This document shows positions 1 to 54,126 of a stretch of DNA of 64,000 nt, piece by piece. A model generated the notes under the pieces. The model saw only the letters and a program-made list of their open reading frames with translations. It was not told the DNA's origin and did not search any database. Position numbers and translations under genes: made by a program. Origin of the DNA: Bacillota bacterium (GTDB lineage: Bacteria > Bacillota > JAAYKD01); contig OY762825.2 in NCBI GenBank assembly GCA_963666425.2, positions 480,001 to 544,000 of the forward strand, in the 5' to 3' direction. Each line of letters starts with the position of its first letter. The first letter of the stretch is position 1.

Positions 1-92
1 CTTCTATCTCCGCCGTCCCTTCGTCCCTTCGTCCCCTCGTCTCCTCTCATTCCTTCTTTCTCCTCCATCTCATCGCCGTTTCTTTTCTCCCT

Positions 93-235
93 CCCTTAAC
101 ACAATATGTACATCACAAAGCACTGTATCCTTGCTGGAATCATCTTCCCGCTGAATACAGTGCTTTTCACATGCCACTCGACAATATTTAAAACCCACAT
201 CAAGCTGTGCCAACACCCCCGTCCCCCTGTAACAT
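93..235. repeat. 143-bp structured direct repeat, copy 1
   Basis: Near-identical gapless copies at 2086-2228 and 3954-4096. Internal 12-bp inverted repeat AAAGCACTGTAT (117-128) / ATACAGTGCTTT (155-166). Ends in TGTGCCAACACCCCCGTCCCCCTG(T/G)AACA. Confidence 0.95.
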
Positions 236-253
236 GCAACGTAATGCACAAAC

Positions 254-282
254 TTGACAAATTCGCTCATTTACGCTATGAT
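254..282 (+). promoter_or_regulatory. sigma70/SigA promoter of ATPase 1
   Basis: TTGACA-17 nt-TATGAT upstream of an AAGGAGG RBS. Confidence 0.75.
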
Positions 283-305
283 CAATGCACAAAGGAGGTA
301 TTCCA

Positions 306-1514
306 ATGGAAAAACTAATTCCCCGCCCTACTTATTTGGAGCAGCTAAAAAACTTTAAAGATAAGCAGTTGATCAAGGTTGTCACCGGTATACGGCGTTG
401 TGGCAAATCCACCTTGTTTGATCTCTATTGTAACTACCTGAAGGAGCAAGGCGTTTTACCGGAACAGATCATCCGCATCAATCTGGAAGACCCGGATCAT
501 CATGATCTTGATGGCTATTTAAAACTGTATAATCTGATCAAAGAGCAACTGATCCCTGAAAAAATGAATTACATCTTTCTCGATGAAGTGCAAAATGTTC
601 CGGAGTTTCAAAAAGCAATTGATGGCTTGTTTATCAAGAAAAACTGCGATGTCTATATCACAGGATCCAATGCCTATCTGCTTTCGGGCGAACTTGCGAC
701 TCTTCTTTCCGGAAGATATGTTGAAATTAAAATGCTTCCCTTATCTTTTTCTGAATTTATTGAAGGAATTGACGACAGCTCTGATCTGATCCTGAAATAT
801 CAACGCTATATTCAAAACGGTTCTTTTCCTTATCTACTGAAACTGGAAAGAAAGCAAGATATCCAAGCCTATTTGGAAGGAATTTATAACACGATTGTTT
901 TGAAGGATATCGCCGCCAGAAAACATATCTCAGACATTAACATGCTGGACAGTGTCATCCGATATATGTTTGATAACATCGGCAACCTCTGTTCTTCAAC
1001 TCAAATTGCCAATACCATGACATCAAAAGGCCGTAAAATCTCCGTCCATACAGTGGAAAGCTATCTTTCTGCTTTGATGGAAAGTTTTGTGCTTTATAAG
1101 ATTGGGCGGTATGATATCAAGGGTAAGCAATATCTTGCTACAGGAGCAAAGTATTATCTTGCCGACATCGGTCTTCGATACTATCTGCTTGGCACGAAAA
1201 AGGCCGACAGAGGACACATCCTCGAAAACGTAGTCTTTCTTGAACTGCTGCGCCGTGGCTATGAAGTGCATATTGGCAAGCTTGGCCAGACTGAGGTAGA
1301 CTTTCTGGCGATCAACAGCACCGGAGAAGAATATTACCAAGTTGCCTATACTGTTTCCGATGAAAACGGAGAAACTCTTACAAGAGAACTTGCTCCCTTG
1401 AATGCGATTAAGGATCACAATCCAAAATATCTGCTGACGATGGATTTTGAACCGCTCACCTCCCATAATGGGATCAAGCAGATCAATGTTTTACAATGGC
1501 TTCTCAAAAACTAG
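306..1514 (+). CDS. AAA_14 + DUF4143 family ATP-binding protein
   Basis: Walker A GIRRCGKS, Walker B IFLDEVQ, ITGSNA motif, C-terminal LEN...EVDF...YYQV (DUF4143-like). The RBS favours ATG at 306. Confidence 0.9.
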   Translation: MEKLIPRPTYLEQLKNFKDKQLIKVVTGIRRCGKSTLFDLYCNYLKEQGVLPEQIIRINLEDPDHHDLDGYLKLYNLIKEQLIPEKMNYIFLDEVQNVPEFQKAIDGLFIKKNCDVYITGSNAYLLSGELATLLSGRYVEIKMLPLSFSEFIEGIDDSSDLILKYQRYIQNGSFPYLLKLERKQDIQAYLEGIYNTIVLKDIAARKHISDINMLDSVIRYMFDNIGNLCSSTQIANTMTSKGRKISVHTVESYLSALMESFVLYKIGRYDIKGKQYLATGAKYYLADIGLRYYLLGTKKADRGHILENVVFLELLRRGYEVHIGKLGQTEVDFLAINSTGEEYYQVAYTVSDENGETLTRELAPLNAIKDHNPKYLLTMDFEPLTSHNGIKQINVLQWLLKN

Positions 1515-1534
1515 ATTTAGGGGAAATTTACCCC

Positions 1535-2085
1535 TTGCCGTCCCCTTGTCTCCACCTCCGTCGTTCCTCTCCCCATCAATTACATTAGCATCTTATCCTT
1601 AACATTGCCCGTCCGTCGTCCTCTGCCCAACAATTACATTAACATCTTATCCTTAACATTGCCCAAATGTAGGGAACGGTCTTGACCGTTCCGCCGTTCT
1701 CCTTCGTTCCTCGTCCCCTCCGTCGCCCTCTGCCCAACAATTACATTGACATCTTATCCTTAACATTGCCCAAATGTAGGGAACGGTCTTGACCGTTCCG
1801 CCGTCCCTTCGTTCTCCTTCGTTCCTCGTCCCCTCCGTCGCCCTTTCCACCCAACAATAACATTAACATCTTATCCTTAACATTGCCCAAATGTAGGGAA
1901 CGGTCTTGACCGTTCCGCCGTTCTCCTTCGTTCCTCGTCCCCTCCGTCGCCCTCTACTCATAAATTGCATTGGCGTATTAGCAACACATTGTCCAAATGT
2001 AGGGAACGGTCTTGACCGTTCCGCCGTTCCTCGTTTCTACCGTTCTGCCGTTCTCCGTCTTCCATCTACCGTCATCCTCACTCAT
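1535..2085 (+). repeat. Tandem GTAG-REP array (4 copies) with pyrimidine-rich spacers
   Basis: GTAGGGAACGGTCTTGACCGTTCCGC at 1669, 1776, 1893 and 1999. The first three are preceded by TTAACATTGCCCAAAT, the fourth by a variant. Confidence 0.92.
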
Positions 2086-2228
2086 CCCTTAACACAATAT
2101 GTACATCACAAAGCACTGTGTCCTCGCTGGAATCATCTTCCCGCTGAATACAGTGCTTTTCACATGCCACTCGACAATATTTAAAACCCACATCAATCTG
2201 TGCCAACACCCCCGTCCCCTTGGAACAT
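2086..2228. repeat. 143-bp structured direct repeat, copy 2
   Basis: Gapless match to 93-235. Confidence 0.95.
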
Positions 2229-2260
2229 CAGTTATATCTTATACAACAGTATATTTTACG

Positions 2261-2289
2261 TTGACCAAAAGATATATCTGTTGTAAAAT
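2261..2289 (+). promoter_or_regulatory. sigma70/SigA promoter of ATPase 2
   Basis: TTGACC-17 nt-TAAAAT, followed by a GGAGGTG RBS. Confidence 0.7.
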
Positions 2290-2319
2290 AACCACAGCAA
2301 GAATACGGAGGTGTTCCGA

Positions 2320-3531
2320 ATGATTAAACGAGAACGATATCTCAGTCAATTACGCGGCTTTATAGATCAGACAGAGGTAGTAAAAATCATCACAGGCATC
2401 CGTCGAAGCGGTAAGTCTGTGATGCTGCAACTAATACAACAAGAACTCCTGGAAAGAGGTGTTCCGAAGAGCAACATCCTCTCTTTTAACTTCGAGGATA
2501 TGACCTTGCGTCAATACAAAGATGCTAACGTTTTGCACGATCACATAAAAGAAAAAATTGAACATTGCACAGGCCGCGCTTATTTGTTTCTTGACGAGGT
2601 TCAGGAAGTTGACAATTGGGAAAGCTGTGTCAATTCTCTGCGTGTAAATTCCGATGTAGACATCTACATTACAGGTTCCAATGCTAAGATGCTTGCCGGA
2701 GAATATGCTACACTCCTGGCAGGGCGGTACATAGAAATTCAAATCTATCCGTTTTCCTTCCAGGAATATTGTATTGCAATCATTGAAAAACAACCCAACC
2801 TTTCTACGGCGGAATGCTTTCAGAAGTATTTGATTACCGGCGGCATGCCCTTTCTGATTGCCCTTGATGCAGACGAAAACACTGCTAAACAATATTTAAG
2901 TGACATTTTTGCGTCTGTTGTGATAAAAGATATTATGAAACGAAACAACTTTCGGGATGTTGATCTTTTGGAACGAATTATCCTGTTTGTGATAGCTAAT
3001 ATTGGCAGAACTTTTTCGGCTACCAGTATTTCAAAATTTCTAAAAAATGATCATCGCAAGGTTGCCCCCGAAACCGTGATCAACTATTTAAAAGCTTGTG
3101 AGCAAGCTTATCTGTTTCATCGTGTCGGTAGGCTTGATCTTGTGGGAAAGAAAATCCTGCAGGTTAATGAGAAATACTATATCTGCGATCACGGTATCCG
3201 CGAAGCTGTATATGGTAATAATCAGCGAGATATTGAGCTAGTGCTCGAAAATATGGTCTTCTTAGAATTGCTGCGTCATGGTTATAAAGTAACCGCAGGC
3301 CGCATAGGCGAAAAAGAGATTGATTTTGTTGCTGATAAAGCAGGCCAGCGTATTTATGTGCAGGTTTGCTATCTGCTTGCTAGTGAAGATACAGTTCAGC
3401 GTGAATTTGGGGTGTTTCGGGACGTTTCGGATAACTTTCCAAAATATGTGGTTTCCTTGGATGAATTCAATTTTAGTCGTGAAGGCATTGAGCATAAAAA
3501 CATCCGCGACTTTCTGCTCATGGAAATGTAG
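2320..3531 (+). CDS. AAA_14 + DUF4143 family ATP-binding protein (divergent paralogue)
   Basis: GIRRSGKS, LFLDEVQ, ITGSNA, LEN...EIDF...YVQV. The stop TAG lies within the GTAG of a REP. Confidence 0.9.
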   Translation: MIKRERYLSQLRGFIDQTEVVKIITGIRRSGKSVMLQLIQQELLERGVPKSNILSFNFEDMTLRQYKDANVLHDHIKEKIEHCTGRAYLFLDEVQEVDNWESCVNSLRVNSDVDIYITGSNAKMLAGEYATLLAGRYIEIQIYPFSFQEYCIAIIEKQPNLSTAECFQKYLITGGMPFLIALDADENTAKQYLSDIFASVVIKDIMKRNNFRDVDLLERIILFVIANIGRTFSATSISKFLKNDHRKVAPETVINYLKACEQAYLFHRVGRLDLVGKKILQVNEKYYICDHGIREAVYGNNQRDIELVLENMVFLELLRHGYKVTAGRIGEKEIDFVADKAGQRIYVQVCYLLASEDTVQREFGVFRDVSDNFPKYVVSLDEFNFSREGIEHKNIRDFLLMEM

Positions 3532-3950
3532 GGAACGGTCTTGACCGTTCCGCCGTCCCCTCATCCCTTCGCCCGTCCCCTCGTCCCCTCGTCCCTTCGC
3601 CCCTTCACTCCTTCACTCCTTCACTCCTCCGTCGTTCCTCTCCCCATCAATTACATTGACATCTTATCCTTAACATTGCCCAAATGTAGGGAACGGTCTT
3701 GAGCGTTCCGCCGTCCCCTCGTCCCCCGTCGCCCTCTCCCCATCAATTACATTAGCATCTTATCCTTAACATTGCCCGTCCGTCGTTCCTCTCCCCAACA
3801 ATTACATTGACATCTTATCCTTAACATTGCCCAAATGTAGGGAACGGTCTTGACCGTTCCGCCATCCCTCGCTTCCACCTCCCTCATCTCCGTCGTCTCC
3901 TCGTCCCCTCGTCCCCTCGTCCCCTCCATCTCATCACTGCTCCTTTGCCC
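3528..3950 (+). repeat. Tandem GTAG-REP array (3 copies) with 7-bp-period CT-rich spacers
   Basis: REPs at 3528, 3686 (one mismatch) and 3837. Confidence 0.92.
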
Positions 3951-3953
3951 TTT

Positions 3954-4096
3954 CCCTTAGCACAATATGTACATCACAAAGCACTATATCCTCGCAGGAA
4001 TCATCTTCCCGCTGAATACAGTGCTTTTCACATGCCACTCGACAATATTTATAACCCACATCAAGCTGTGCCAACACCCCCGTCCCCCTGGAACAC
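3954..4096. repeat. 143-bp structured direct repeat, copy 3
   Basis: Gapless match to 93-235. Confidence 0.95.
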
Positions 4097-4235
4097 ACAT
4101 TTGCGCTCTTGTCAACTTCAAATAATTTAATTGAGTGTCCCAAAAATACTTTTCCAAATCGGCCGCTCCTTCAATTAAACTTTATTCAGTCGTGCACTGT
4201 GCAACCTATTTAATGAAGTGTAAAGGCTATCATTC

Positions 4236-5189
4236 CTATATTGAACGTAGCTTAATAGGCACAAATATGTCAAGCTGCTTATATCCGAGCCCGCGGTTTA
4301 TTTTCTCGCCTACAAGCATGTGGAACATTGTCCTGTGTCCTTCACGTTCGTCAAGTTCAAATCCACTATTGTCGATCCATGCTTTAATCCCTTTATATAC
4401 CCTGCCATTTATATCATCATCACCGTCGATGGATATTGCGTTTGCGTATAGACCACCTTCAAATTCTATTATTTCATAACCGTTTGTATCTTTTTCATTA
4501 ACCCAGTCTTCTATGGCAACATACCATATCCCTCTGCCATTCGGTTCAAAAAACATAAAATCAAGCGGAGAAAATGATATACCTTTTCGTTTTTCGTCAT
4601 ACTCACAAAACCACTTATCAAAGCTTCCTATAACCTCACTTAAATCGTTAAAGCAACCTGATGAAACCATTCTACACTTAGGTATTTCGACAATCCTGAC
4701 TTCTGGTGCCTTTTTAAGCTTCTCTGTAATATTTAAAAGACTGTTAAAGTGCGAAGGATTTCCTTCGTACCCAACGTTAATTATCTGCTGTTCAATTTCC
4801 TTTGCTTTCTCGTATAAAAGTTTAACATCTGAATCCTTCTGAAAATCACTCCTCTGGATTTGTATTATAAATTCTAAGACTATTTTTTTCAGCTCATGCA
4901 GAAGAGCTACTTCATCATCAATATCGGAAACTTTTTTACCCAGAACATTTAAAACCACCTCGGAACCGGAGGCTCGAAAAATTCTCTGAATATCTTTAAT
5001 GCTGATGTTTAACCTACGAAGTATAAGAATCTGCTCCAACCGTTTTATTGAGGCTTCATCGTACATTCTATACGCATAATCATCATTTCTCTGACTGCTT
5101 ATCAATCCCATATCTTCATAATATCGAAGAGTGCGGGCAGTCACATCATACCTGTTTGATACTTCTTTGATTTTTAATAAATCAGGCAT
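4236..5189 (-). CDS. MerR-family regulator with C-terminal GyrI-like effector-binding domain
   Basis: N-terminal LKIKEVS...TARTLRYYEDMGL...YRMY MerR HTH; C-terminal YEIIEFEGGLYA...DIFVPIK. Confidence 0.88.
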   Translation of the reverse strand: MPDLLKIKEVSNRYDVTARTLRYYEDMGLISSQRNDDYAYRMYDEASIKRLEQILILRRLNISIKDIQRIFRASGSEVVLNVLGKKVSDIDDEVALLHELKKIVLEFIIQIQRSDFQKDSDVKLLYEKAKEIEQQIINVGYEGNPSHFNSLLNITEKLKKAPEVRIVEIPKCRMVSSGCFNDLSEVIGSFDKWFCEYDEKRKGISFSPLDFMFFEPNGRGIWYVAIEDWVNEKDTNGYEIIEFEGGLYANAISIDGDDDINGRVYKGIKAWIDNSGFELDEREGHRTMFHMLVGEKINRGLGYKQLDIFVPIKLRSI

Positions 5190-5223
5190 AGTTTGTTTTC
5201 CCCTTTTCGTTTTTATAAACAAT

Positions 5224-5254
5224 ATAATAATTGCTTCCCCAACGGAAGAGTCAA
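5224..5254 (-). promoter_or_regulatory. MerR-type promoter/operator
   Basis: TTGACT-19 nt-TATTAT with dyad CTTCC-GTTGG-GGAAG inside the long spacer, the hallmark of MerR-regulated promoters. Confidence 0.75.
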
Positions 5255-5441
5255 GAGGAAAGAGAAGAAATAGTAATTAATGCTAGACTCGTTGCTTAGA
5301 TGATTGATTGAGTTTGGAAATAATATCCTTGTCATTGTTTTTATATCCGCATCATACATGAGTAATCTCAAATCTCTTTTTACTTCTTCGATATAAACGT
5401 CTGCGCTTTGAATCCGTACTTACTTTCTATATATACCTGTA

Positions 5442-6911
5442 TCATTTTATGGTTACTCTTTCGCATGTCACGTCAAGCGAAAACCAAAAAACATCGTTCT
5501 TTTTTTCTTTTGCCTTATATAATGCAGTATCGGCCAGCTCAATCAACTCAAATTCATTCTTTATGTTGTTCCAAGCAGTAACTCCGCCAATGGAAACAGT
5601 GACTCGAACCCCCGACTTCATCTTTCCGTTATGAAAGTCAAAAGCCTCAATATTTTGCCTGATTTTTTCTGCGATCAATGTCCCTTCGCTTTGGTTAATA
5701 CCGGGCAAAATAATTAGTATTTCTTCTCCGCCGTACCTGCAAACAATGTTCGACGTCTCAACGCTGTTTTTAATCAAGTCGGAAATATTTATTAGGACGT
5801 AATCGCCGCAGGAATGGCCCCACATGTCATTAAATTTTTTGAAATTGTCGATGTCTAACATAAGAGCCGAAATGCTGATGTTAAAATGTTGAGAAGATTT
5901 AAATATTTTTTCGATTAAGGGAAAAGCATATCTTCTGGAAAGCAGCCCGGTCAGTGGATCAGTTTTTGCATCCTTCCCCAAGATAATCAATTTGCGTCGA
6001 ACATCGTAATTAACAATGTTCTGCCTCAGAATTGCAAGTGTAAGCAGAATAATCCCGAAATCTTTTACAGGTTTCATCAGAAACGAAGCATTGGAAAATC
6101 TTATTAAACAATAAAAATAGACTACCAGATAAGCCAAAATCAATCCGTTTATTAATGTTGGGAATATTCTGGATTTTGAACGTTCCTGATACAAATCAAT
6201 TGTAGTATAATCAACATTGGTTTTATTGCTTTTTATTAGTAAGAGAATAATAATAAGCATAACAAATCCAAGTAATTGCAGATAATCCCCAAGTCCATAG
6301 GAGCTTACGGGGAATATAGCTTCAAAAGCAAATAATAAATCACCAATCGTCCAGATTAAGGCACTTACAGTTAATGGAGTAAAAATTATTTCATCGCTTA
6401 ATATATAGACTTTGCTGGTATAAACATAATAGCCTAGCAGCGCAAAATCTAGGATAGGATAAACAATATTTATAGCTTTGTCAAAATCAAAAACGGGAAG
6501 CAAAAGTTGCGTGGAAAGTAAAGAACGGTCAAAATAGTAAAATATTAAATATGAAAAAACAGAAACAATTAAAAAATCTATAGTAGGTAGCTCCCAAGTT
6601 ATAAGTTTTATATTTCCCCCTAGCGTTGGATTTTTTATCAGATTCTTAGTTCTTTGCTTTAAGTATAGAAATATTGAAAAGTAAAATAAACCATAAAAAA
6701 TGGAATCTATGGGTATATTCATGGGTTTGCTAATTATGTCGAAGCACAATGATCCCAGAATATAAAAGATATCTGCTGAAATAAAGTATAAAAATTCTCT
6801 GTCTCTGTCCCTATGATAACGCCATAAGAAAAAGATAAGCGTTAACACGCAGATAAAAAGCGTATAATCCTGTGTAATTAATTTAAGCATTGCTCCGTTC
6901 CTCACTGACAT
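5442..6911 (-). CDS. Membrane-bound GGDEF diguanylate cyclase
   Basis: Many TM segments; DPLTGL, DIDNFKKFND..GH..GD, RYGGEEI, AD.ALY.AK. Confidence 0.92.
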   Translation of the reverse strand: MSVRNGAMLKLITQDYTLFICVLTLIFFLWRYHRDRDREFLYFISADIFYILGSLCFDIISKPMNIPIDSIFYGLFYFSIFLYLKQRTKNLIKNPTLGGNIKLITWELPTIDFLIVSVFSYLIFYYFDRSLLSTQLLLPVFDFDKAINIVYPILDFALLGYYVYTSKVYILSDEIIFTPLTVSALIWTIGDLLFAFEAIFPVSSYGLGDYLQLLGFVMLIIILLLIKSNKTNVDYTTIDLYQERSKSRIFPTLINGLILAYLVVYFYCLIRFSNASFLMKPVKDFGIILLTLAILRQNIVNYDVRRKLIILGKDAKTDPLTGLLSRRYAFPLIEKIFKSSQHFNISISALMLDIDNFKKFNDMWGHSCGDYVLINISDLIKNSVETSNIVCRYGGEEILIILPGINQSEGTLIAEKIRQNIEAFDFHNGKMKSGVRVTVSIGGVTAWNNIKNEFELIELADTALYKAKEKKNDVFWFSLDVTCERVTIK

Positions 6912-6926
6912 CGTAGCTATAATTCG

Positions 6927-6974
6927 AAAAGCAAGGAAGATCGGTATTGACTTTTACCGATCTTCCTGCTTTTT
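6927..6974. terminator. Strong hairpin, bidirectional terminator-like, just upstream of the GGDEF gene
   Basis: AAAAGCAAGGAAGATCGGTA...TACCGATCTTCCTGCTTTT. Confidence 0.6.
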
Positions 6975-7158
6975 GCATGATAATTCACGGTGAAAAGCTC
7001 TCACCATGAGGGTTATTATAGTTTAGTTATATAGATATTATACTCCAAAGGCACTATTCTCCCAACCACTATCTCAAATCATCTTCGGGGACTGCCAAAT
7101 GGTCTATGTAGTTTATGACTTCCTCATAAGTAAGCTTACGTCCCTGTTGCCATTCAAG

Positions 7159-7252
7159 TGAGTACACCGGAGCAGTTGAGCCACCGGTCCGGGAGCCGAG
7201 AACCACTGTCCTGGTGGAGTGAGAGCCATCTTACCGGAAAAAAGAGAGCCAC
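7159..7252. mobile_element. IS21-family-like terminal fragment
   Basis: TGAGTACACCGGAGCAGTTGAGCCACC start with repeated GAGCCA motifs; related fragments at about 16864 and 17213. Confidence 0.55.
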
Positions 7253-7462
7253 TTGTAGGACATATCCTTTATACTGTATTCATGTGTGTTTTGTCAAGAG
7301 GAAATCCCTGAACTTTTCAAGATGAATTCCCAGAAATAATCACGAGCAATCCCGGAAAAAATCATCGAGGTTATTTAACAGATTGACGTATCAAAGCATG
7401 AGTCATCCGGTAGCTTTGACCCTCAAAAATCAAAAGATGACCATGGTGAACCAAACGGTCAA

Positions 7463-7771
7463 TCATGGCAGCGGCCATCTGTCACATCCATAACAAAAAG
7501 TCTCAAACCTGTATTTCTTCCGGCCTCTCGGGTTCCAATTATCAACAATTCTCTCAACAGGCATTCTACAACCCCACATACAACTGCTACACTTACTATC
7601 ATATGTCCTGGCTGCCAGCCTGTAGTGTCCTCTTTCTCTATATACTTCCAGTTCCGGCGGCACCAGTTCCCAGGGCGATGAGGTGTTGCCGCTGGTATTA
7701 TTTCGTCTGATGGAGTTTAAGCTTAGCAACCTTATAGAAATCAACCGCTTCCGTGTTTGCGTCGGTTACTG
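7463..7771 (-). pseudogene. 3' fragment of a hypothetical gene, truncated by the IS66 end
   Basis: About 160 bp near-identical to 9107-9263; CSSCMWGC motif; homology stops at the IS end at 7772. Confidence 0.6.
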
Positions 7772-8110
7772 GGTAAACGTCAAATAACACACACATAGTC
7801 AAACAAGTCAAGAAATGAGATATTACCTCCAAAAGGAGGTGTAGTCATGGAAACAACAAAAACGCAAAAGTGCAAGAAATACACGAATCCAGAAAAGGCC
7901 GAGCTGCTAATTTTGTATCAGTGCAGCGGAATGTCAGCAAAAACATGGTGTGAAGAAAACGGCATTGGCGTCAGCACACTGCAAAAATGGCTGAATCTTG
8001 ACAGAAAGCAAGCAGACACGAAAGTAACGCAACATTGGGCAGCAATTGCGGTATTGCCTAAAGCCGGAGGCCGCACGGTGCTTTTGCAAGCGGGGAAATT
8101 CAGTATTGAG
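7772..8110 (+). mobile_element. IS66-family remnant (left end plus truncated tnpA-like HTH ORF from 7847)
   Basis: GTAAACGTCAAATAACAC terminus; ORF SGMSAKTWCEENGIGVSTLQKW typical of IS66 TnpA; homologous to 16694 onward. Confidence 0.75.
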
Positions 8111-8136
8111 GTGATGTACCGATCGCCCAATCCAAT

Positions 8137-8451
8137 CTATTTCTTCTTACCTAAATTTGCGTAGTACTCCGCTCCTCTAGTTATACCGTGCTGCATATTC
8201 TTTCCTTTCTCTTCTCTGAGCAATTTGTCAATCGCTTCGGCCACTCGTTTACTGTCACCTGTATCAACGGGGTATGATGGGTTTTCCTGTTCTGCAATTT
8301 TTTTGTCATACACCATCCGGACCTTGATTACTGACTGCAAAATGCCATCCCAGTCCTCATCCCCAACAGAAATTTCATATTCCGTGCCACTCGGATACGG
8401 CTTACTTGCCGGAATCGTCAGGCTTTTTCTTGGGAGAAATCTTCTTGCCAT
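8137..8451 (-). CDS. Hypothetical protein
   Basis: 104-aa ORF with a GAGGA RBS. Confidence 0.6.
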   Translation of the reverse strand: MARRFLPRKSLTIPASKPYPSGTEYEISVGDEDWDGILQSVIKVRMVYDKKIAEQENPSYPVDTGDSKRVAEAIDKLLREEKGKNMQHGITRGAEYYANLGKKK

Positions 8452-8508
8452 TCATATCCTCTTTCCTCTCGTCTTCACTGGTGGTCAATTGATCTTCCTC
8501 CCCGTTTT

Positions 8509-8940
8509 TCACACAGTCACCTGTTTCCTTTCGTACAGCCATACCACCAGCATGCCAATGGCGACACCCACCAACACACCAGAAAAATCCAGCCAGACAT
8601 CGCTAATCTGATCTCCGCGGCCGGAGAAGATTTGAATTGTTTCGTCAATCAACGCAGCGAGGAGCCCCAGGTTAAGGGCTGAGAACATACGCTTCCAAGA
8701 AGCTACAAAGAGCAGCGCCATCTCAAAGCCCAGCAGCGAGAACTCAAACAAATGCGCCATCTTGCGCACGGTCGTATCGGTTACCGTTGCTTTGCCGGTC
8801 ACGGCTTGTTGGATTGGCTGAACGACCGTACTTGTTACTGCATGGCTGTTAGCAGATGATTCGGCAACAGACAGTGCCGATTGTCCCCAGATAAAAAGCA
8901 GCGTGAGAAAAATCAGAACGATCAGGATTTTACGCTTCAA
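8509..8940 (-). CDS. VanZ-family membrane protein
   Basis: VRKMAHLFEF, DETIQIF.GR...DVWLD motifs. Confidence 0.88.
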   Translation of the reverse strand: MKRKILIVLIFLTLLFIWGQSALSVAESSANSHAVTSTVVQPIQQAVTGKATVTDTTVRKMAHLFEFSLLGFEMALLFVASWKRMFSALNLGLLAALIDETIQIFSGRGDQISDVWLDFSGVLVGVAIGMLVVWLYERKQVTV

Positions 8941-9099
8941 TCATTTCACGTTCCTCTCTCTTCGTATTTCGTGCAAGTCATGCCTCGCCCCTACATTTCT
9001 CCACGCGCTCCTATTCATCTATATCCCTATGCTCTGTATTTTGCTGGTCAACCCAATCTTCCTCAACATACACCGCCCCGTTCCGACCTTCCACCTTCC

Positions 9100-9482
9100 G
9101 GTTCGGGCCAGCCTGCGGTGTCCTCTTTCTCTATATACTTCCAGTTCCGGCGGCACCAGTTCCCAGGGCGATGAGGTGTTGCCGCTGGTATTATTTCGGC
9201 TGATGAGTTTATGCTTAGCAACCTTATAGAAATCAACCGGTTCCGTGTTTGGGTCGGTTACTGGTAAGCAATCTCCGGAGATAGTGTCGTTGACTTTGAA
9301 TTGATGTTCGGTATGAGCTGCTTTGCCGATGCCGATGGAGAAGTTGGTTTGCTGGTTGTCCAACTCCCCCTCCAATTGAATGGCATAGCCCAAATAAGTA
9401 TGAGAGGCTTCATGAAATGAACGCGTCAGTCTTATTCTTGGCTGGATTTTATAATTCTTCCTTGAAAGGTTGATTTATCCAT
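9100..9482 (-). pseudogene. 5' part of the same hypothetical gene as 7463-7771, frameshifted and truncated
   Basis: AGGAGG RBS and ATG at 9482, early frameshift, overlap with the 7.6-kb fragment. Confidence 0.55.
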
Positions 9483-9554
9483 GTTGGGTTTGCCTCCTGA
9501 TTAAAAAAATATTATGGGGTATTTTTCCTGGTTACATGTTCATGTACAAGAAGT

Positions 9555-9681
9555 AAATAAAAACCGGTTACATTTCTGTAACCGGTTAAGTTGTATGAGA
9601 ATCAGGTGGGGTGACATTCCCACATCTCCAAACAAAGGGTGACGGCTGCCCGTTCCGTCCTCTGATTCTCATTTCCTTCGC
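9555..9681 (-). ncRNA. Candidate small structured RNA or leader
   Basis: Promoter CTGACA-17-TATACT (9716-9688); 11-bp closing stem ATGAGAATCAG/CTGATTCTCAT enclosing two hairpins; terminator at 9562-9587. Confidence 0.45.
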
Positions 9682-9729
9682 TATTACAGTATAAGTTATT
9701 TTAACAAGATTGTCAGCGCCCACTCTTCC

Positions 9730-10245
9730 CTAATACTTCCTCCAAACCATGCGATCGACAATGCCCGTGTAGCTCTGTATGATCTTGACAACCATGCTGC
9801 TCACATTCAAATCGGCATAATCCGGCACGGGAATGCCAAAATTGCCGTTCCGATTCATCTCTACTGCCGTATCCACCGCCTGCAAGACTTGCTCTATGGT
9901 AATACCGGCCAGAATGAAATTGCCTTTGTCCATTGCTTCCGGACGTTCGGTAGAAGTGCGGATGCAAACTGCCGGGAACGGTTTGCCAATGGCATTGAAG
10001 AAGCTTGCTTCTTCCGGTAGGGTGCCGCTATCGGAAACCACACAAAACGCATTCATCTGCAGATGGTTGTAATCGGAAAAGCCAAAAGGTTTGAGGCTGC
10101 GCACGTTGGCATGAAAAACAAACTGGCGCTGCTCAATAAACTTTACCGCCCACGGATGGCAGCTGTAGATCACCGGTATCTGATATTTCTTCGCCATGGC
10201 ATTGACCGCATTCATCAGCTGCAAGAAATTGGTTTCGGTTGACAG
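9730..10245 (-). pseudogene. wecB: 3' half of non-hydrolysing UDP-GlcNAc 2-epimerase (WecB/FnlC-like), copy 1
   Basis: YSCHP, VVSDSGTLPEE, RTSTERPEA motifs; N-terminal half missing. Confidence 0.85.
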
Positions 10246-10266
10246 ATCCGAAAAAAACATCGATCA

Positions 10267-11712
10267 TTACATTCCTTTTCTAAAGTTATTTGTTCCAAAT
10301 AACTTACTATATTGATCCAATGCATATTGATCTGTCATTCCTGCAATATAGTCGCATACTTTTCTGTTTATAAGTCGTATAAATTTAGGGTCTCTTTTCT
10401 CGTTATTCTGAAAAAGCAAGGCATTCAATTTGTTCCTGCAATCAAAGTCAACTTCTACTTTATTTCCAGAATAATCTTCGATAATTAACCGAATTGTATT
10501 GTCTGGAAGTAATTTAGGGTTTCTTACATAAGAAATGAACAATTGTTTGATTAAATAGTCAGCTTTTTCATCCATAATCTGTGCTGTTTCAGAGAATATT
10601 ACTCTCGAAGACAAGAATTTTTTAAATTCTTTATCTCTCTGAATAAAGTCATCGAAGTCTTCATCATTAATTTCATCAAAATCTTTGAACAATTTCAAAA
10701 TCTGATCTTTAGTAAATGACTCCGATTTACAGTCAAAATTCTTATGAAGGCTTTTAAATCTATAAGCAAAGTGCTTAGCATAAACAATTCTGTAAAACCC
10801 GATGAGAAACGAGGAAAGCCTTGAAAGAAAAGTAGATTTATCTGCTGCTATAACAGATGAGTTAATGCTACGGAGTAACTCAAGTTCTGATCGATTTGGA
10901 ATAGTGTACGAAGAAAAAAAATCATGAATTTTATCAATCATTTCTGATGGTGTCAACAGCCCTGCATAAAGGCCATCTTCAATATCGTGGTGCCGTTGAG
11001 CTATTTCATCAGCATATTGTACTACCATAGCTTCAAAAGTTCTACCTTCATTTACTGAAGCAATGAGTTCATCATATACACTTAGTTCTGTTAACCCATT
11101 TAAAGGACAGGTATCGAACTCATTTCGATTTAAACACTTATTCTCAAGTTCGCTATAAAAACCGCACTGTTTGTATTTTAGATCCGTGTGATTGGAAATA
11201 CCCCATAATGTATAGTTTGTAAGGTTCAAACCATCATACCGCGGAGTTATTTTTTCAAGCGTTTTCAAAACCCGTAAACCCTGCAAATTATGTTTAAATC
11301 CTGCACAGCAAGAAAAATCAGTAGGCATATTGTCAACTCGTATACAACCGTTCATGAACATATTTAGGGTTCTTTCTCCAACATGACCAAAGGGTGTATG
11401 ACCTACATCATGCCCCAAAGCAATAGCCTCCGCAAGATTTGAATTTAAACCTAAATTAGAGGACATTGCTTTAGAAATATGAGCCACTTCAAGAGTATGA
11501 GTTAAGCGTGTACGCATATTGTCGTCAAATCCCGCAACAAAGACTTGGGTTTTACCACTAAGTCTACGGAATTCTTTTGAATATAAAATTCTATCTCGGT
11601 CTTTTTTAAATTCATCACGTAAGGGATCCAAATCTTCTGCAAATTCTCTTTTTGCTAAGTTTGTTTTTGCACAGAACAGTTTACCCGAATTGAGTATTTC
11701 AGTGGAATTCAA
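10267..11712 (-). CDS. dgt: HD-superfamily dGTP triphosphohydrolase (dGTPase)
   Basis: FRRLSGKTQVF, RTRLTHTLEV, HDVGHTPFGH.GE, ADEIA, DYIAGMTDQYA. Confidence 0.92.
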   Translation of the reverse strand: MNSTEILNSGKLFCAKTNLAKREFAEDLDPLRDEFKKDRDRILYSKEFRRLSGKTQVFVAGFDDNMRTRLTHTLEVAHISKAMSSNLGLNSNLAEAIALGHDVGHTPFGHVGERTLNMFMNGCIRVDNMPTDFSCCAGFKHNLQGLRVLKTLEKITPRYDGLNLTNYTLWGISNHTDLKYKQCGFYSELENKCLNRNEFDTCPLNGLTELSVYDELIASVNEGRTFEAMVVQYADEIAQRHHDIEDGLYAGLLTPSEMIDKIHDFFSSYTIPNRSELELLRSINSSVIAADKSTFLSRLSSFLIGFYRIVYAKHFAYRFKSLHKNFDCKSESFTKDQILKLFKDFDEINDEDFDDFIQRDKEFKKFLSSRVIFSETAQIMDEKADYLIKQLFISYVRNPKLLPDNTIRLIIEDYSGNKVEVDFDCRNKLNALLFQNNEKRDPKFIRLINRKVCDYIAGMTDQYALDQYSKLFGTNNFRKGM

Positions 11713-11880
11713 AAAAACACCTCACTCATTGAATTTCGTAAGCACATATCAATATAAAACTATTTGCGTAAAAAAGCCTTACGTTTCCAGGCCTTTATTT
11801 ATTTTTTACTACTTGATCTTTGATATTGGGCTACACTGAGCATTCCGCTGTCTCCCCACGTGCCTCCCCGCTCTGCCCCC

Positions 11881-12351
11881 CTAATACTTCCTCCAAACCA
11901 TACGATCGACAATGCCCGTGTAGCTCTGTATGATCTTTACTACCTTGCTGCTCACATTCAAATCGGCATAATCCGGCACGGGGATGCCAAAATCGCCGTT
12001 CCGATTCATCTCCACTGCCGTATCCACCGCCTGCAAGACTTGTTCTGTGGTAATACCGGCCAGAATGAAATTGCCTTTATCCATCGCTTCCGGGCGTTCG
12101 GTAGAAGTGCGGATGCAAACTGCCGGGAACGGTTTGCCAATGGCATTGAAGAAGCTCGCTTCTTCCGGCAGGGTGCCACTATCGGAAACCACACAAAACG
12201 CATTCATCTGCAGATGGCTGTAATCCGAAAAGCCAAAGGGTTTGAGGCTGCGCACATTGGCATGAAAATGAAACTGGCGCTGCTCAATAAACTTTGCCAC
12301 CCGCGGATGGCAGCTGTAGATCACCGGCATCTGATATTTCTCTGCCATGGC
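11881..12351 (-). pseudogene. wecB: 3' half of UDP-GlcNAc 2-epimerase, copy 2
   Basis: Near-identical to 9730-10202. Confidence 0.85.
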
Positions 12352-12508
12352 ACTAACAACGCTTCTATGGGCTGGGCTCATGAAGTAGCATTCGAACCAA
12401 TAGTATTTATCTCAAAATTAACATCATCTATCTTGACTCATATTACATTTTATGGTAATATTATGTAGCTAGATGATGTTCTGAAATTATATAGAAAGGA
12501 GAAAAGCT

Positions 12509-52264: not shown

Positions 52265-52930
52265 ACCAGGGATGGGGGATGGGGGATGGGGAACGGGGTG
52301 ACGGGATGACGGGATGACGGGATGACGGGATGACGGGATGACGGGATGACGGGATGACGGGATGACGGGATGACGGGATGACGGGATGACGGGATGACGC
52401 GGAATGGTCAAGACCATTCCCTACCTTGCACAATGTTCATGACAAATCTGCAATGGATGTATAAAACGCCAAAGCACGCTGGGTAGAAATGATAAAACGC
52501 AATGGTAAACCGCAAAACCACATTGGGATACCATCAAAATACATTGGGAAAACGATAAATCACGTTGGAATACCATCAAAATACACTGGGAAAACGATAA
52601 ATCACAATGCTAAACCGCCAAACCACATTGGGATACCACCAATATACATTGGGAAAACGATAAATCACGTTGGTAAACCGCAAAACCACATTGGGATACC
52701 ACCAATAAACATTGGGAAAACGATAAATCACGTTGGGTAAATGTAGGGAACGGTCTTGACCGTTCCGCAACGTATCGCATTAATTAGCTTAATAGGCTAA
52801 CGGTTGCGTAGGATGGGAACGAGGTTACAAAAAACGAGAGACAAGGTTACGCGGAATGGTCAAGACCATTCCCTACCTTGCACAATGTTAATGACAAATC
52901 TGTAATGGATGTATAAAACGCCAAAGCACG
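52265..52930. repeat. REP composite: (TGACGGGA)12, 3 REPs and a 21-bp array
   Basis: 8-mer at 52299-52394; REPs at 52399(-), 52743(+), 52851(-). Confidence 0.93.
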
Positions 52931-52978
52931 CTATGTAGTTGTAAGGATGGTTTGGTTACATGCGCTCCACATCACTAC

Positions 52979-53455
52979 TCATCGAGGGGAATAATGCTCA
53001 TCGTCTTCCCACTTCAATGGATTTTCATCGATATATTGCCAAACGCCTAAATATCCTTTTTCGTCGCGGATGACATGATCATAAAACGACTTTTGCCAAA
53101 TTTCCGCATTCGGATTTGTTTCGTGAATTCGTTTGGAAACACCAGCTTTATACAAACCAACAATGGTAGACAAATTTGGAAACGATGTTGATTGTTCCAC
53201 TGTATCGTTGCACCCGATGATAACGATTGCATGCACATGATTTGGCATAATAACATATTTATCAATTTGCACACCATCAAAATGCGCTGCAATTTTCAAG
53301 ATTTCCGCTTCGGCAATTTCACCATATTCGTTGAGCGCATTAATCCCGCCGAATAAATGCGCTTTTTTGTGTGTGCATAGAGTAATATGGTAATAGTTTT
53401 GATTTGAATAATCATAATCCGGCAATCGAGGTAATTTTCGATTTGGCAAGTCCAT
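52979..53455 (-). CDS. REP-associated tyrosine transposase (RAYT; HUH Y1 nuclease)
   Basis: RK..RL..YDYS, YHIT.CT, MPNHVH (HUH), WQKSFYDHVIRD, YIDENP; GGAGG RBS; REPs on both sides. Confidence 0.92.
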   Translation of the reverse strand: MDLPNRKLPRLPDYDYSNQNYYHITLCTHKKAHLFGGINALNEYGEIAEAEILKIAAHFDGVQIDKYVIMPNHVHAIVIIGCNDTVEQSTSFPNLSTIVGLYKAGVSKRIHETNPNAEIWQKSFYDHVIRDEKGYLGVWQYIDENPLKWEDDEHYSPR

Positions 53456-53529
53456 ACAGTAAAACCTCCGATTCGAAACGGGAAAACGTGGGAGCGGGGC
53501 GAGGTTGTGGTAAAACAAGACTGTGGGGC

Positions 53530-54126
53530 GAAGAACGAGGAACGAGGAACGAGGAACGAGGAACGGGGAACGGGGAACGAGGAACGAGGAACGAGGAACG
53601 GGGAACGAGGAACGGGGAACGAGGAACGAGGAACGAGGAACGAGGAACGGGGAACGAGGAACGAGGAACGGGGAACGGGGTTACGCGGAATGGTCAAGAC
53701 CATTCCCTACCTTGCACAATGTTCATTACAAATCTGCAATGGTATATGTGAGGGCTACAAGGTACGAGGTTACAAAGAACAAGGAACAAAGAACGGGGAA
53801 CGAGGAACGAGGTGACGCGGAATGGTCAAGACCATTCCCTACCTTGCACAATGTTCATTACAAGTCTGCAATGGATGTATAAAACGCCAAAATACATTGG
53901 CAAAACGATAAATCACGCCAAACAGCATTGGGAAACCATCAATATACATTAAAAAACCGATTAACCACATTGGGCAGATGTAGGGAACGGTCTTGACCGT
54001 TCCGTAACGTCCCGCATTAATTAGCTTAATAGGCTAACGGGTAAGTGGCATGGGAACGAGGGATGAAGAACGAGGTTATGGGGAACGAGGAACGGGGTTA
54101 CGCGGAATGGTCAAGACCATTCCCTA
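53530..54126. repeat. REP composite: about 21 x GGAACG(A/G) heptamer and 4 REPs
   Basis: Heptamer at 53533-53680; REPs at 53685(-), 53817(-), 53980(+), 54102(-). Confidence 0.93.

Follow-up and report, generated by a model that had tools for sequence, protein, structure and literature searches.

Three copies of a 143-bp site lie at the start of the window (the whole stretch of DNA analyzed, 64,000 nucleotides), and each is followed by cargo: two ATPase genes and a gene for a MerR-family regulator. The features are listed below with their strand.

93..235, plus: extended site, copy 1, made of a 113-bp passenger and a TIR
117..166, plus: hairpin with a 12-bp stem in the passenger of copy 1, at the same place in copies 2 and 3
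206..234, plus: TIR of copy 1, 29 nt, with the fixed outer joint at its 3′ end; it belongs to a TIRYT gene outside the window
254..282, plus: promoter-like site of ATPase 1, sigma-70-like
306..1514, plus: ATPase 1, cargo, AAA_14/DUF4143; PADLOC candidate PDC-S01
1537..2085, plus: CT-rich spacer and four GTAG REPs (1669, 1776, 1893, 1999)
2086..2228, plus: extended site, copy 2, with its TIR at 2199-2227
2261..2289, plus: promoter-like site of ATPase 2, sigma-70-like
2320..3531, plus: ATPase 2, cargo, AAA_14/DUF4143; PDC-S01; stop codon inside the first GTAG REP
3528..3953, plus: three GTAG REPs (3528, 3686, 3837) and CT-rich spacer
3954..4096, plus: extended site, copy 3, with its TIR at 4067-4095, the last TIR of the window
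4236..5189, minus: MerR-family regulator, cargo, convergent; the matching G001 site has other DNA next to it
52979..53452, minus: GTAG-type RAYT, probable source of the GTAG REPs and not of the terminal box
G000:C1:435359-436096, 44 kb upstream of the window: TIRYT gene P0001, flanked by the TIRs

The preliminary description reported three near-identical, gapless repeats whose identity stops abruptly after a terminal box, and our results agree. The copies at 93, 2086, and 3954 align without gaps, with 5, 7, and 8 pairwise mismatches, and their identity ends at the box; when 83 chromosomal boxes are compared, the bases are already mixed at the position right after the 29-nt unit. The 12-bp hairpin that it described, which lies at 117-166 in copy 1, is well supported (z = −3.9; 0 of 200 shuffles folded equally well), and 2 of its 23 predicted pairs show a compensatory change among the 18 copies compared. 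The box alone has no stable fold: z scores of −0.1 to −1.1 against shuffles gave no support to a stable hairpin there. The promoter scan listed no promoter within the 143-bp site, and an Rfam scan of positions 1-8000 gave five matches, all far under the gathering scores.

The cargo was also largely as first described, with two distant AAA_14/DUF4143 ATPases (37% identical) and a convergent MerR gene. The sigma-70-like sites after copies 1 and 2 differ, in a scan where sites of this kind were not enriched over shuffled sequence. GTAG REPs (187 copies) do precede copies 2 and 3, and they likewise precede copy 1, just beyond the window edge. The array reaches 12 kb further upstream of the window, with three additional extended copies. 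Several of its cargoes are multi-gene operons, and the only transposase gene between sites is an IS110, in a spacer. A genome-wide spread of the repeat without a consistent sharp junction had been raised as a point against the first interpretation; the terminal box does occur genome-wide (108 copies in the assembly), yet it keeps its sharp junction, and the 143-bp extension is restricted to this locus. The search of the genome contigs for related loci returned one locus only, and the metagenome scan returned 11, with the 143-bp site in 1.

The last 29 bp of each 143-bp copy are the TIR of P0001, a TIRYT-type HUH/Y1 transposase. Its gene is flanked by TIRs in inverted orientation, one of which overlaps the stop codon, and has no GTAG REP at its flanks. 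This is the arrangement described for TIRYT genes, where the TIRs have a GGGG-led motif, overlap the 3′ end of the gene, and have extra copies as singles, dimers, or clusters (available text of Di Nocera et al., 2013, PMC3733652). The TIR motif here, GGGGACGG, agrees with 7 of the 8 positions of the GGGGWSAS consensus, one base off. P0001 has 245 aa and matches PF01797 (Y1_Tnp) above the cut-off; its NF047646 score (78.1) is just below the cut-off of 80, and its only PDB match was to TnpAREP 4ER8. Residues H60, H62, Y117, N121, and P122 (HuH and Y-x-x-x-NP) are invariant in eight aligned sequences, an SS motif follows W136, and seven of the eight share a conserved C-terminal block that is missing from the 53-kb RAYT. 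TnpA-Y1 subclass 2.1 has about 240 aa, HuH, Y-x-x-x-NP, SS, and a C-terminal helix-turn-helix-like extension (available text of Quentin et al., 2018, PMC6006769); the helix-turn-helix label is taken from that paper, and no Pfam HTH model matched P0001 at E ≤ 0.001. From sequence, we assign the box to a subclass-2.1 HUH/Y1 transposase (TIRYT) as its TIR, with cutting activity predicted.

The 108 TIRs comprise 63 singles, 32 in inverted pairs, and 13 in tandem. They were present in 2 of the 31 genomes searched, the same two that encode the P0001 enzyme at 86-100% identity; TIR patterns had no match in G033 and G028. By hand count, 21 of 35 homologous loci had their own GGG(G)AC/GGGGTC-type TIRs. 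The G-rich strand of single TIRs was on the leading-sequence strand in 45 of 56 cases (hand count), a figure in which the copies are non-independent and gene orientation confounds.

The TIR has a constant outer end, to which many unrelated sequences are joined. For 18 of the 83 outer ends, a convergent stop codon is no more than 4 nt away (null mean 0.96, maximum 5 in 2000); the link is weaker in G290 (2 of 20), and GTAG REPs show none (2 and 0 of 140). Re-copied upstream sequence directly follows 25 of 135 TIRs, with a period of 10-350 nt (control, 3). Junctions have no common target sequence, and several cut into genes, at unrelated sequences. The AbiEii-like cargo is cut at codon 250, and all five of its homologues (5/5) end at 250-258. 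Of 13 junctions put through an automatic search, 4 had no identifiable donor.

The blocks between sites differ among alleles, and the variable cargo content and order and the sharp junction that the preliminary description spoke of were all found. At the same sites, a second strain and a sister species have alleles with other cargo (Wadjet, an AbiEii-like pair, Kiwa), and cargo content and ATPase order differ among three alleles (C1, C17, and G001). ATPase 2 has the same TIR junction in all three with different neighbours; it is 98.7% identical to the sister-species copy and 90.2% identical to that of the second strain. Past the last G001 site, the DNA has no match in G000 and only a weak IS66 match (E 0.012, under the cut-off). 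At G001 TIRs outside the array, the outer neighbour differs from that in C1 in 7 of 8 comparable cases (hand count), with gaps of up to 11.7 kb. Of 67 internal alignment ends of G001 loci against C1, 13 are no more than 7 nt from an outer end (hand count), and 3 of these are near an inner end as well; the G001 loci had been chosen around TIRs, a choice that favours breaks at those points.

Among candidate drivers of the array, the HUH/Y1 enzyme P0001, working in trans, ranks first. On balance, the array was probably built by one-ended nick-and-join at the TIR combined with homologous exchange, and it is probably not an integron. The enzyme would nick single-stranded DNA at the outer end of the TIR, probably on the G-rich strand, and would remain bound to the 5′ end of the TIR until any nearby 3′ end released it. 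If that 3′ end came from re-synthesis into the inner side, a tandem copy of the inner DNA and the TIR would result; new sites would arise in this way, with the 113-bp passenger and the REP spacer hitch-hiking. A 3′ end farther out would give an adjacent deletion, with the neighbour trimmed until selection halts the process at a stop codon or promoter, and the 3′ end of incoming DNA would attach new cargo. The shared 143-bp and REP arms would allow whole blocks to be exchanged between strains or species by homologous recombination. The outcome would be a cassette-like array of co-oriented blocks, each with one boundary fixed and the other variable. New joints appear to be rare because, of the 9 TIRs on contigs C4, C8, and C16 of the same species, 7 keep the outer neighbour that they have in C1, and because the ATPase 2 and JetC junctions are identical across species. 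The DNA flanking the array is 93-97% similar between species (81-90% for most other blocks), and therefore exchange need not respect block boundaries. Counting against this mechanism are the rarity of new joints, this similarity beyond the array, the absence of any cargo block from a second locus of the same genome, and the distance of the enzyme, 32 kb from the nearest site of the array and 44 kb from the window.

We put forward more tentatively, as a possibility, that TIRYT and TIR form a dedicated gene-capture platform, an HUH-based counterpart of the integron, which would join incoming single-stranded DNA to the TIR end, trim it to the gene end, and keep defence- or resistance-type genes in growing, shufflable arrays.

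The first alternative involves no capture: TIR-ended mini-elements would hop locally into island DNA of other origin, and RecA recombination between repeats would shuffle or delete blocks. Most TIRs are indeed singles or inverted doublets between ordinary genes, and ATPase 1 exists both with a TIR and, in C17, with native upstream DNA and none. Tandem duplication and deletion alone explain the swap in ATPase order, and in C17 a second copy of ATPase 2 survives behind a site as a 3′ fragment. However, the junctions listed include no clean empty allele, with both flanks the same and the site missing; where the TIR is absent, one flank differs too. Cargo trimmed to gene ends at the TIR and large indels that start at its outer end also speak against this explanation, which we consider rather unlikely.

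A true cassette system, in which TIR × TIR recombination excises blocks as defined circles that are re-inserted at another TIR, is less probable still. It would fit the ATPase 2 block: C1 and G001 share both of its boundaries and the site variant downstream of it, and its neighbours differ on either side. It would also fit the cargo-less sites (5 of 18 aligned sites run straight back into spacer), which bear out a point of the preliminary description, and the second array, of small cassette-like genes (GNAT, NUDIX, HAD, APH, Adenyl_transf, and Arr). Against it, junctions fall inside genes and at unrelated sequences, the second boundary is variable, and within any one genome no cargo block turned up at a second locus. 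In the contigs of four read runs, whose joints mostly lie among repeats, no circle or intermediate was seen. The genome search gave neither an integron integrase over the cut-off (best TIGR02249 score 86.7 against 265, 1.6 Mb away) nor a serine resolvase. Of the integron-like character first proposed, the layout stands; the absence of such an integrase, the form of the junctions, and the variable other block end go against it.

The preliminary description suggested that the RAYT at 53 kb drives the array in trans. An HUH/Y1 enzyme in trans is still the best candidate, but not that one: GTAG REPs flank the RAYT, which has no box within 48 kb, and the box flanks the other Y1 gene. That the RAYT builds the array via GTAG REPs, with TIRs as passengers, is very improbable. 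GTAG REP clusters do lie upstream of most sites, and in C1 and G001, though not in C17, ATPase 2 runs at its 3′ end straight into a GTAG REP. However, the 187 GTAG REPs lack the stop-codon link, the sharp joints lie at the TIR, and no GTAG REPs of this family are listed with the TIRs of the second array or of the G290 array. As the source of the sharp boundary the RAYT is largely refuted, and it may have made some of the variable second boundaries.

Mis-assembly across repeats in a mixed metagenome bin is hardly credible as the origin of the differing alleles: bin contamination is 6.85% and no contig from four read runs spans the array, but C17 and G001 share the JetC junction, which turns up once more as a loose end in run X3, three assemblies agree on the ATPase 2 junction, metagenome locus L024 shows further cargo at a diverged site, and the TIR-to-cargo joints are unique sequence, independent of order across repeats.

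Subclass 2.1 ranks second in size among the groups of Y1 HUH transposases and is found in 14.9% of species, with no demonstrated substrate or role in the available text (PMC6006769), and binding and cutting of the TIR by TIRYT are proposed as future work in the available part of PMC3733652. This locus supplies a precise candidate substrate (the 29-nt TIR), a predicted cut (the outer end), and predicted products (tandem copies, adjacent deletions, and cargo joints), so that the role is directly testable. If the capture platform exists, it bears on a group (probably Bacillota) in which 74 of the 301 genomes of our phylum sample have TIRYT homologues; complete integrons were reported in no Firmicutes genomes (available text of Cury et al., 2016, PMC4889954). 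If the enzyme builds arrays by nick-and-join, this would explain how bacteria without integrons collect and exchange defence and accessory genes.

IS91/ISCR elements use an HUH enzyme for one-ended rolling-circle transposition, have one fixed and one variable end, and carry adjacent genes. Their arrays are consolidated by homologous recombination, and they have a Y2 transposase in cis and ori and ter ends. Here, in contrast, there are a Y1 enzyme in trans, symmetric TIRs, and no fixed target tetranucleotide; Y2_Tnp (PF04986) had no match in the genome search, nor in the control genomes. A subclass-2.1 TnpAREP lies beside prochlorosin genes and was proposed to multiply or diversify its neighbours (bioRxiv 10.1101/2020.03.09.984088). 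The enzyme subclass is the same, but no inverted repeats were found in that case, there is one cargo family, and an added note by the authors withdraws the causal claim.

Integrons and CALINs likewise have co-oriented sites between accessory or defence genes, often at stop codons, with variable content and order (available text of Cury et al., 2016, PMC4889954). Here there is no IntI over the cut-off and apparently no attC/attI anatomy, and the cargo has promoter-like sites of its own, both orientations, sizes of up to 8-10 kb, and non-specific joints. An attC site is a long imperfect palindrome with R and L boxes and one fixed crossover; a box without a stable fold and junctions without a shared target sequence argue against it. 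Integron cassettes are promoterless and are excised as circles, whereas both ATPases have promoter-like sites and several cargoes are operons.

TIRYTs are already published, and we found no paper on such arrays, which points to the array-building route via TIR ends being undescribed; an earlier listing of this TIR type may nonetheless exist in Figure 9 or the supplementary files of PMC3733652 and PMC6006769. The TIRtron/TIRYT (PMC3733652; PMC6006769; RAYT group 1, Bertels et al., 2017, PMC5581495) has the same flanking TIRs, GGGG-led motif, 3′ overlap, dispersed TIRs, and C-terminal extension. In the available text of these papers it appears without cargo, co-oriented arrays, extended locus-specific sites, or activity, all of which but activity were seen here. 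In the REPtron/TnpAREP-BIME system, an HUH enzyme likewise works on dispersed repeats in trans: the related TnpAREP of E. coli cuts single-stranded DNA and joins it again in vitro, and a similar model of nick, re-synthesis, and strand transfer was published for tandem amplification (available text of Ton-Hoang et al., 2012, PMC3333891). Unlike its repeats, the TIR has neither a GTAG foot nor a stable hairpin, and the products here include kilobase gene blocks and not only repeat units.

All three 143-bp copies lie where the preliminary description placed them, with 5, 7 and 8 mismatches, and the genes between them are, as it described, two AAA_14/DUF4143 ATPases and a convergent MerR gene. The two ATPases share 37% identity. 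The reported 12-bp stem in the inner part of the site folded better than 200 of 200 shuffles, and two compensated pairs were found in it among 18 copies. The window covers G000:C1:480001-544000. The array begins 12 kb ahead of the window start; six site copies lie on contig C1 within 468-484 kb, all on the same strand. Each site ends in a 29-nt box, and the 113-bp passenger before the box is confined to the array locus.

The box was present in 2 of the 31 genomes searched, namely the present genome and that of the sister species G001, with 108 copies in the assembly (63 single, 32 in inverted pairs, and 13 in tandem). Contig C1 has two Y1_Tnp genes. P0001, a transposase gene outside the window (C1:435359-436096), has boxes on both sides in inverted orientation, one of them overlapping its stop codon. 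Its motifs, length, and C-terminal block match subclass 2.1, which Quentin et al. (PMC6006769) treat as identical to the TIRYTs described by Di Nocera et al. (PMC3733652). The G001 enzyme is 86% identical to P0001, with the same box frame around the gene. Homologues were found in 74 of 301 genomes of a phylum sample, and by hand count 21 of 35 homologue loci carry same-type TIRs of their own. Since the box frames P0001 and co-occurs with the enzyme, and homologue loci have their own TIRs, it is the TIR of a TIRYT, and the 3' end of the box marks where the element ends on its outer side. The TIRYT gene's upstream region and a TIR are repeated at C1:438521, 2.3 kb away (G000:C1:436263-439837; L004:6264-9838); an AraC gene and a C45 hydrolase gene lie between the two copies, and G001 lacks this stretch.

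The other Y1_Tnp gene, the RAYT at 53 kb in the window, previously proposed as a possible driver of the system in trans, does not encode the enzyme of the box: GTAG REPs flank it, and no box lies within 48 kb. REP arrays with 7-8-bp microsatellite-like spacers surround this gene (window 52300-54100).

Contigs C2, C4, C6, C8, C16, and C17 are another strain's alleles of C1 regions (95-99% identical), which explains part of the contamination figure of the bin. C17 is the second-strain allele of the locus, with a left flank 98% identical; the sister species has its orthologous locus on G001:C17.

Cargo order in the three alleles
C1: adhesin of 3383 aa, ATPase 1, ATPase 2, MerR
C17: adhesin, Wadjet-type operon, ATPase 2, ATPase 1, 3' fragment of ATPase 2, third ATPase, Schlafen-domain gene, epimerase fragment, Kiwa
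G001: Wadjet III, AbiEii-like pair, ATPase 2, stretch with a weak IS66 match

Variable cassette order and cargo-less sites, both raised in the preliminary description, were found: the order differs among the three alleles, and 5 of 18 aligned sites return to spacer, the other 13 opening onto nine different cargo starts. Further AbiEii-like cargo follows a diverged site on one metagenome contig. The C1 copy of ATPase 2 shares 98.7% identity with its sister-species counterpart and 90.2% with that of the second strain; therefore, blocks move between lineages, although the array flanks are likewise more similar between species than the core is.

Three mutually distant (36-38%) PDC-S01-type ATPases are gathered at the locus across alleles (window 306-1514, 2320-3531; L002:17251-18510). 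Giant genes of 3383 aa (an SLH/Ig-repeat surface protein; G000:C1:469193-479344, L001) and 3634 aa (C1:337793-348700) both terminate no more than 1 nt from the outer end of a TIR, and the G001 locus lacks them. An IS110-family element lies within a GTAG REP array (G000:C17:11307-12834, L002); C1 has nine near-identical copies, with ends at REP positions where checked. At the edge of a polysaccharide locus (window 7847-12400) is a patchwork of a transposase-like HTH fragment, VanZ, two partial UDP-GlcNAc 2-epimerase copies, and a dGTPase-like gene (PADLOC).

Immediately beyond the TIR outer end the bases are already mixed in composition, and similarity to TIR-less alleles of the outer DNA starts within a few bases of it. 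Donor sequences, found for 9 of 13 junctions, share no common target sequence. Several joints cut into genes, at the start of an AbiEii gene that is intact on C4, in the tail of ATPase 2, and in the middle of an epimerase. The second boundary of each block is variable, meeting REP spacer or entering the passenger at differing points. Among 39 TIRs examined, eight G001 copies lay outside the array with sufficient flank and an orthologous inner side; the outer neighbour differs at seven, and those that map on both sides show gaps of 1.6 to 11.7 kb. In comparisons within the species, it differs at only 2 of 9, one via an IS. When G001 loci, picked around TIRs, were aligned to C1, 13 of 67 internal alignment ends were no more than 7 nt away from an outer end (hand count; rough expectation below 1). 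Upstream sequence is re-copied directly after the TIR in 25 of 135 cases, with periods of 10-350 nt (control, 3).

Of the 83 chromosomal outer ends, 18 have a convergent stop codon within 4 nt, where 2000 null draws gave a mean of 0.96 and never more than 5; 10 additional genes run into the TIR. The comparison sets gave 2 of 51 for inner ends and 2 and 0 of 140 for GTAG REPs. AbiEii-like cargo is truncated at codon 250, and five homologues terminate at 250-258. The proximity of outer ends to stop codons most likely reflects trimming stopped by selection; gene ends may instead be targeted directly.

A second array (G000:C1:2817940-2899106, L068-L072) has 18 more co-oriented TIRs, six of them with a second passenger of 70-110 bp, unrelated to the first. 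They lie among restriction genes and genes of the GNAT, NUDIX, HAD, APH, Adenyl_transf, and Arr types; the small accessory genes that they separate include APH, a streptomycin adenylyltransferase-like gene, and a rifampin ADP-ribosyltransferase-like gene. At places where C1 has remnants, the strain contig C4 carries an AbiE pair and a type I restriction system that is complete. G290, a genome from another family, carries co-oriented TIRs in runs that share an inner extension; the stop-codon link is weaker there (2 of 20). Two of its TIR runs, in opposite directions, adjoin a polysaccharide locus (G290:C7:36444-107897, L064-L066).

IS91-type movement is one-ended. The data show an outer end that is fixed and partners that vary, together with local re-copies and variable cargo, and we consider one-ended nick-and-join at the TIR, with homologous spread of blocks, the probable mechanism by analogy with HUH chemistry, our model for the nick and attack steps (PMC3333891). 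The enzyme would nick the outer end and remain attached to the TIR, a 3' end close by would attack to yield duplication, deletion, or new attachment, and homologous arms would let blocks spread. The ATPase swap could have arisen if the unit [site, ATPase 2, ATPase 1] was duplicated and deletions then ran from TIR ends, which fits the ATPase 2 3' fragment retained as such a remnant on C17. The G-rich strand is on the lagging-strand template for 45 of 56 single TIRs, as expected for a Y1 enzyme, in a hand count that is confounded. Against nick-and-join stand the stability of joints across species, the finding of no block at two loci, and the fact that no circle was seen among the contigs of four sequencing runs. 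Local hopping of the element without capture of cargo seems unlikely to us, and movement as true circular cassettes still more doubtful.

The element, part of a system first suggested to be integron-like, is not an integron, as a search of the genome for an integron integrase was negative; it belongs to the TIRtrons, a kind already published. In a search of the main texts of mostly open-access literature, no paper on cargo arrays bounded by TIRYT ends came up. Closest is a preprint on prochlorosin genes (bioRxiv 10.1101/2020.03.09.984088), the authors of which withdrew their causal claim. The present locus contributes a set of three alleles, sites that are long and specific to the locus, and statistics with controls.
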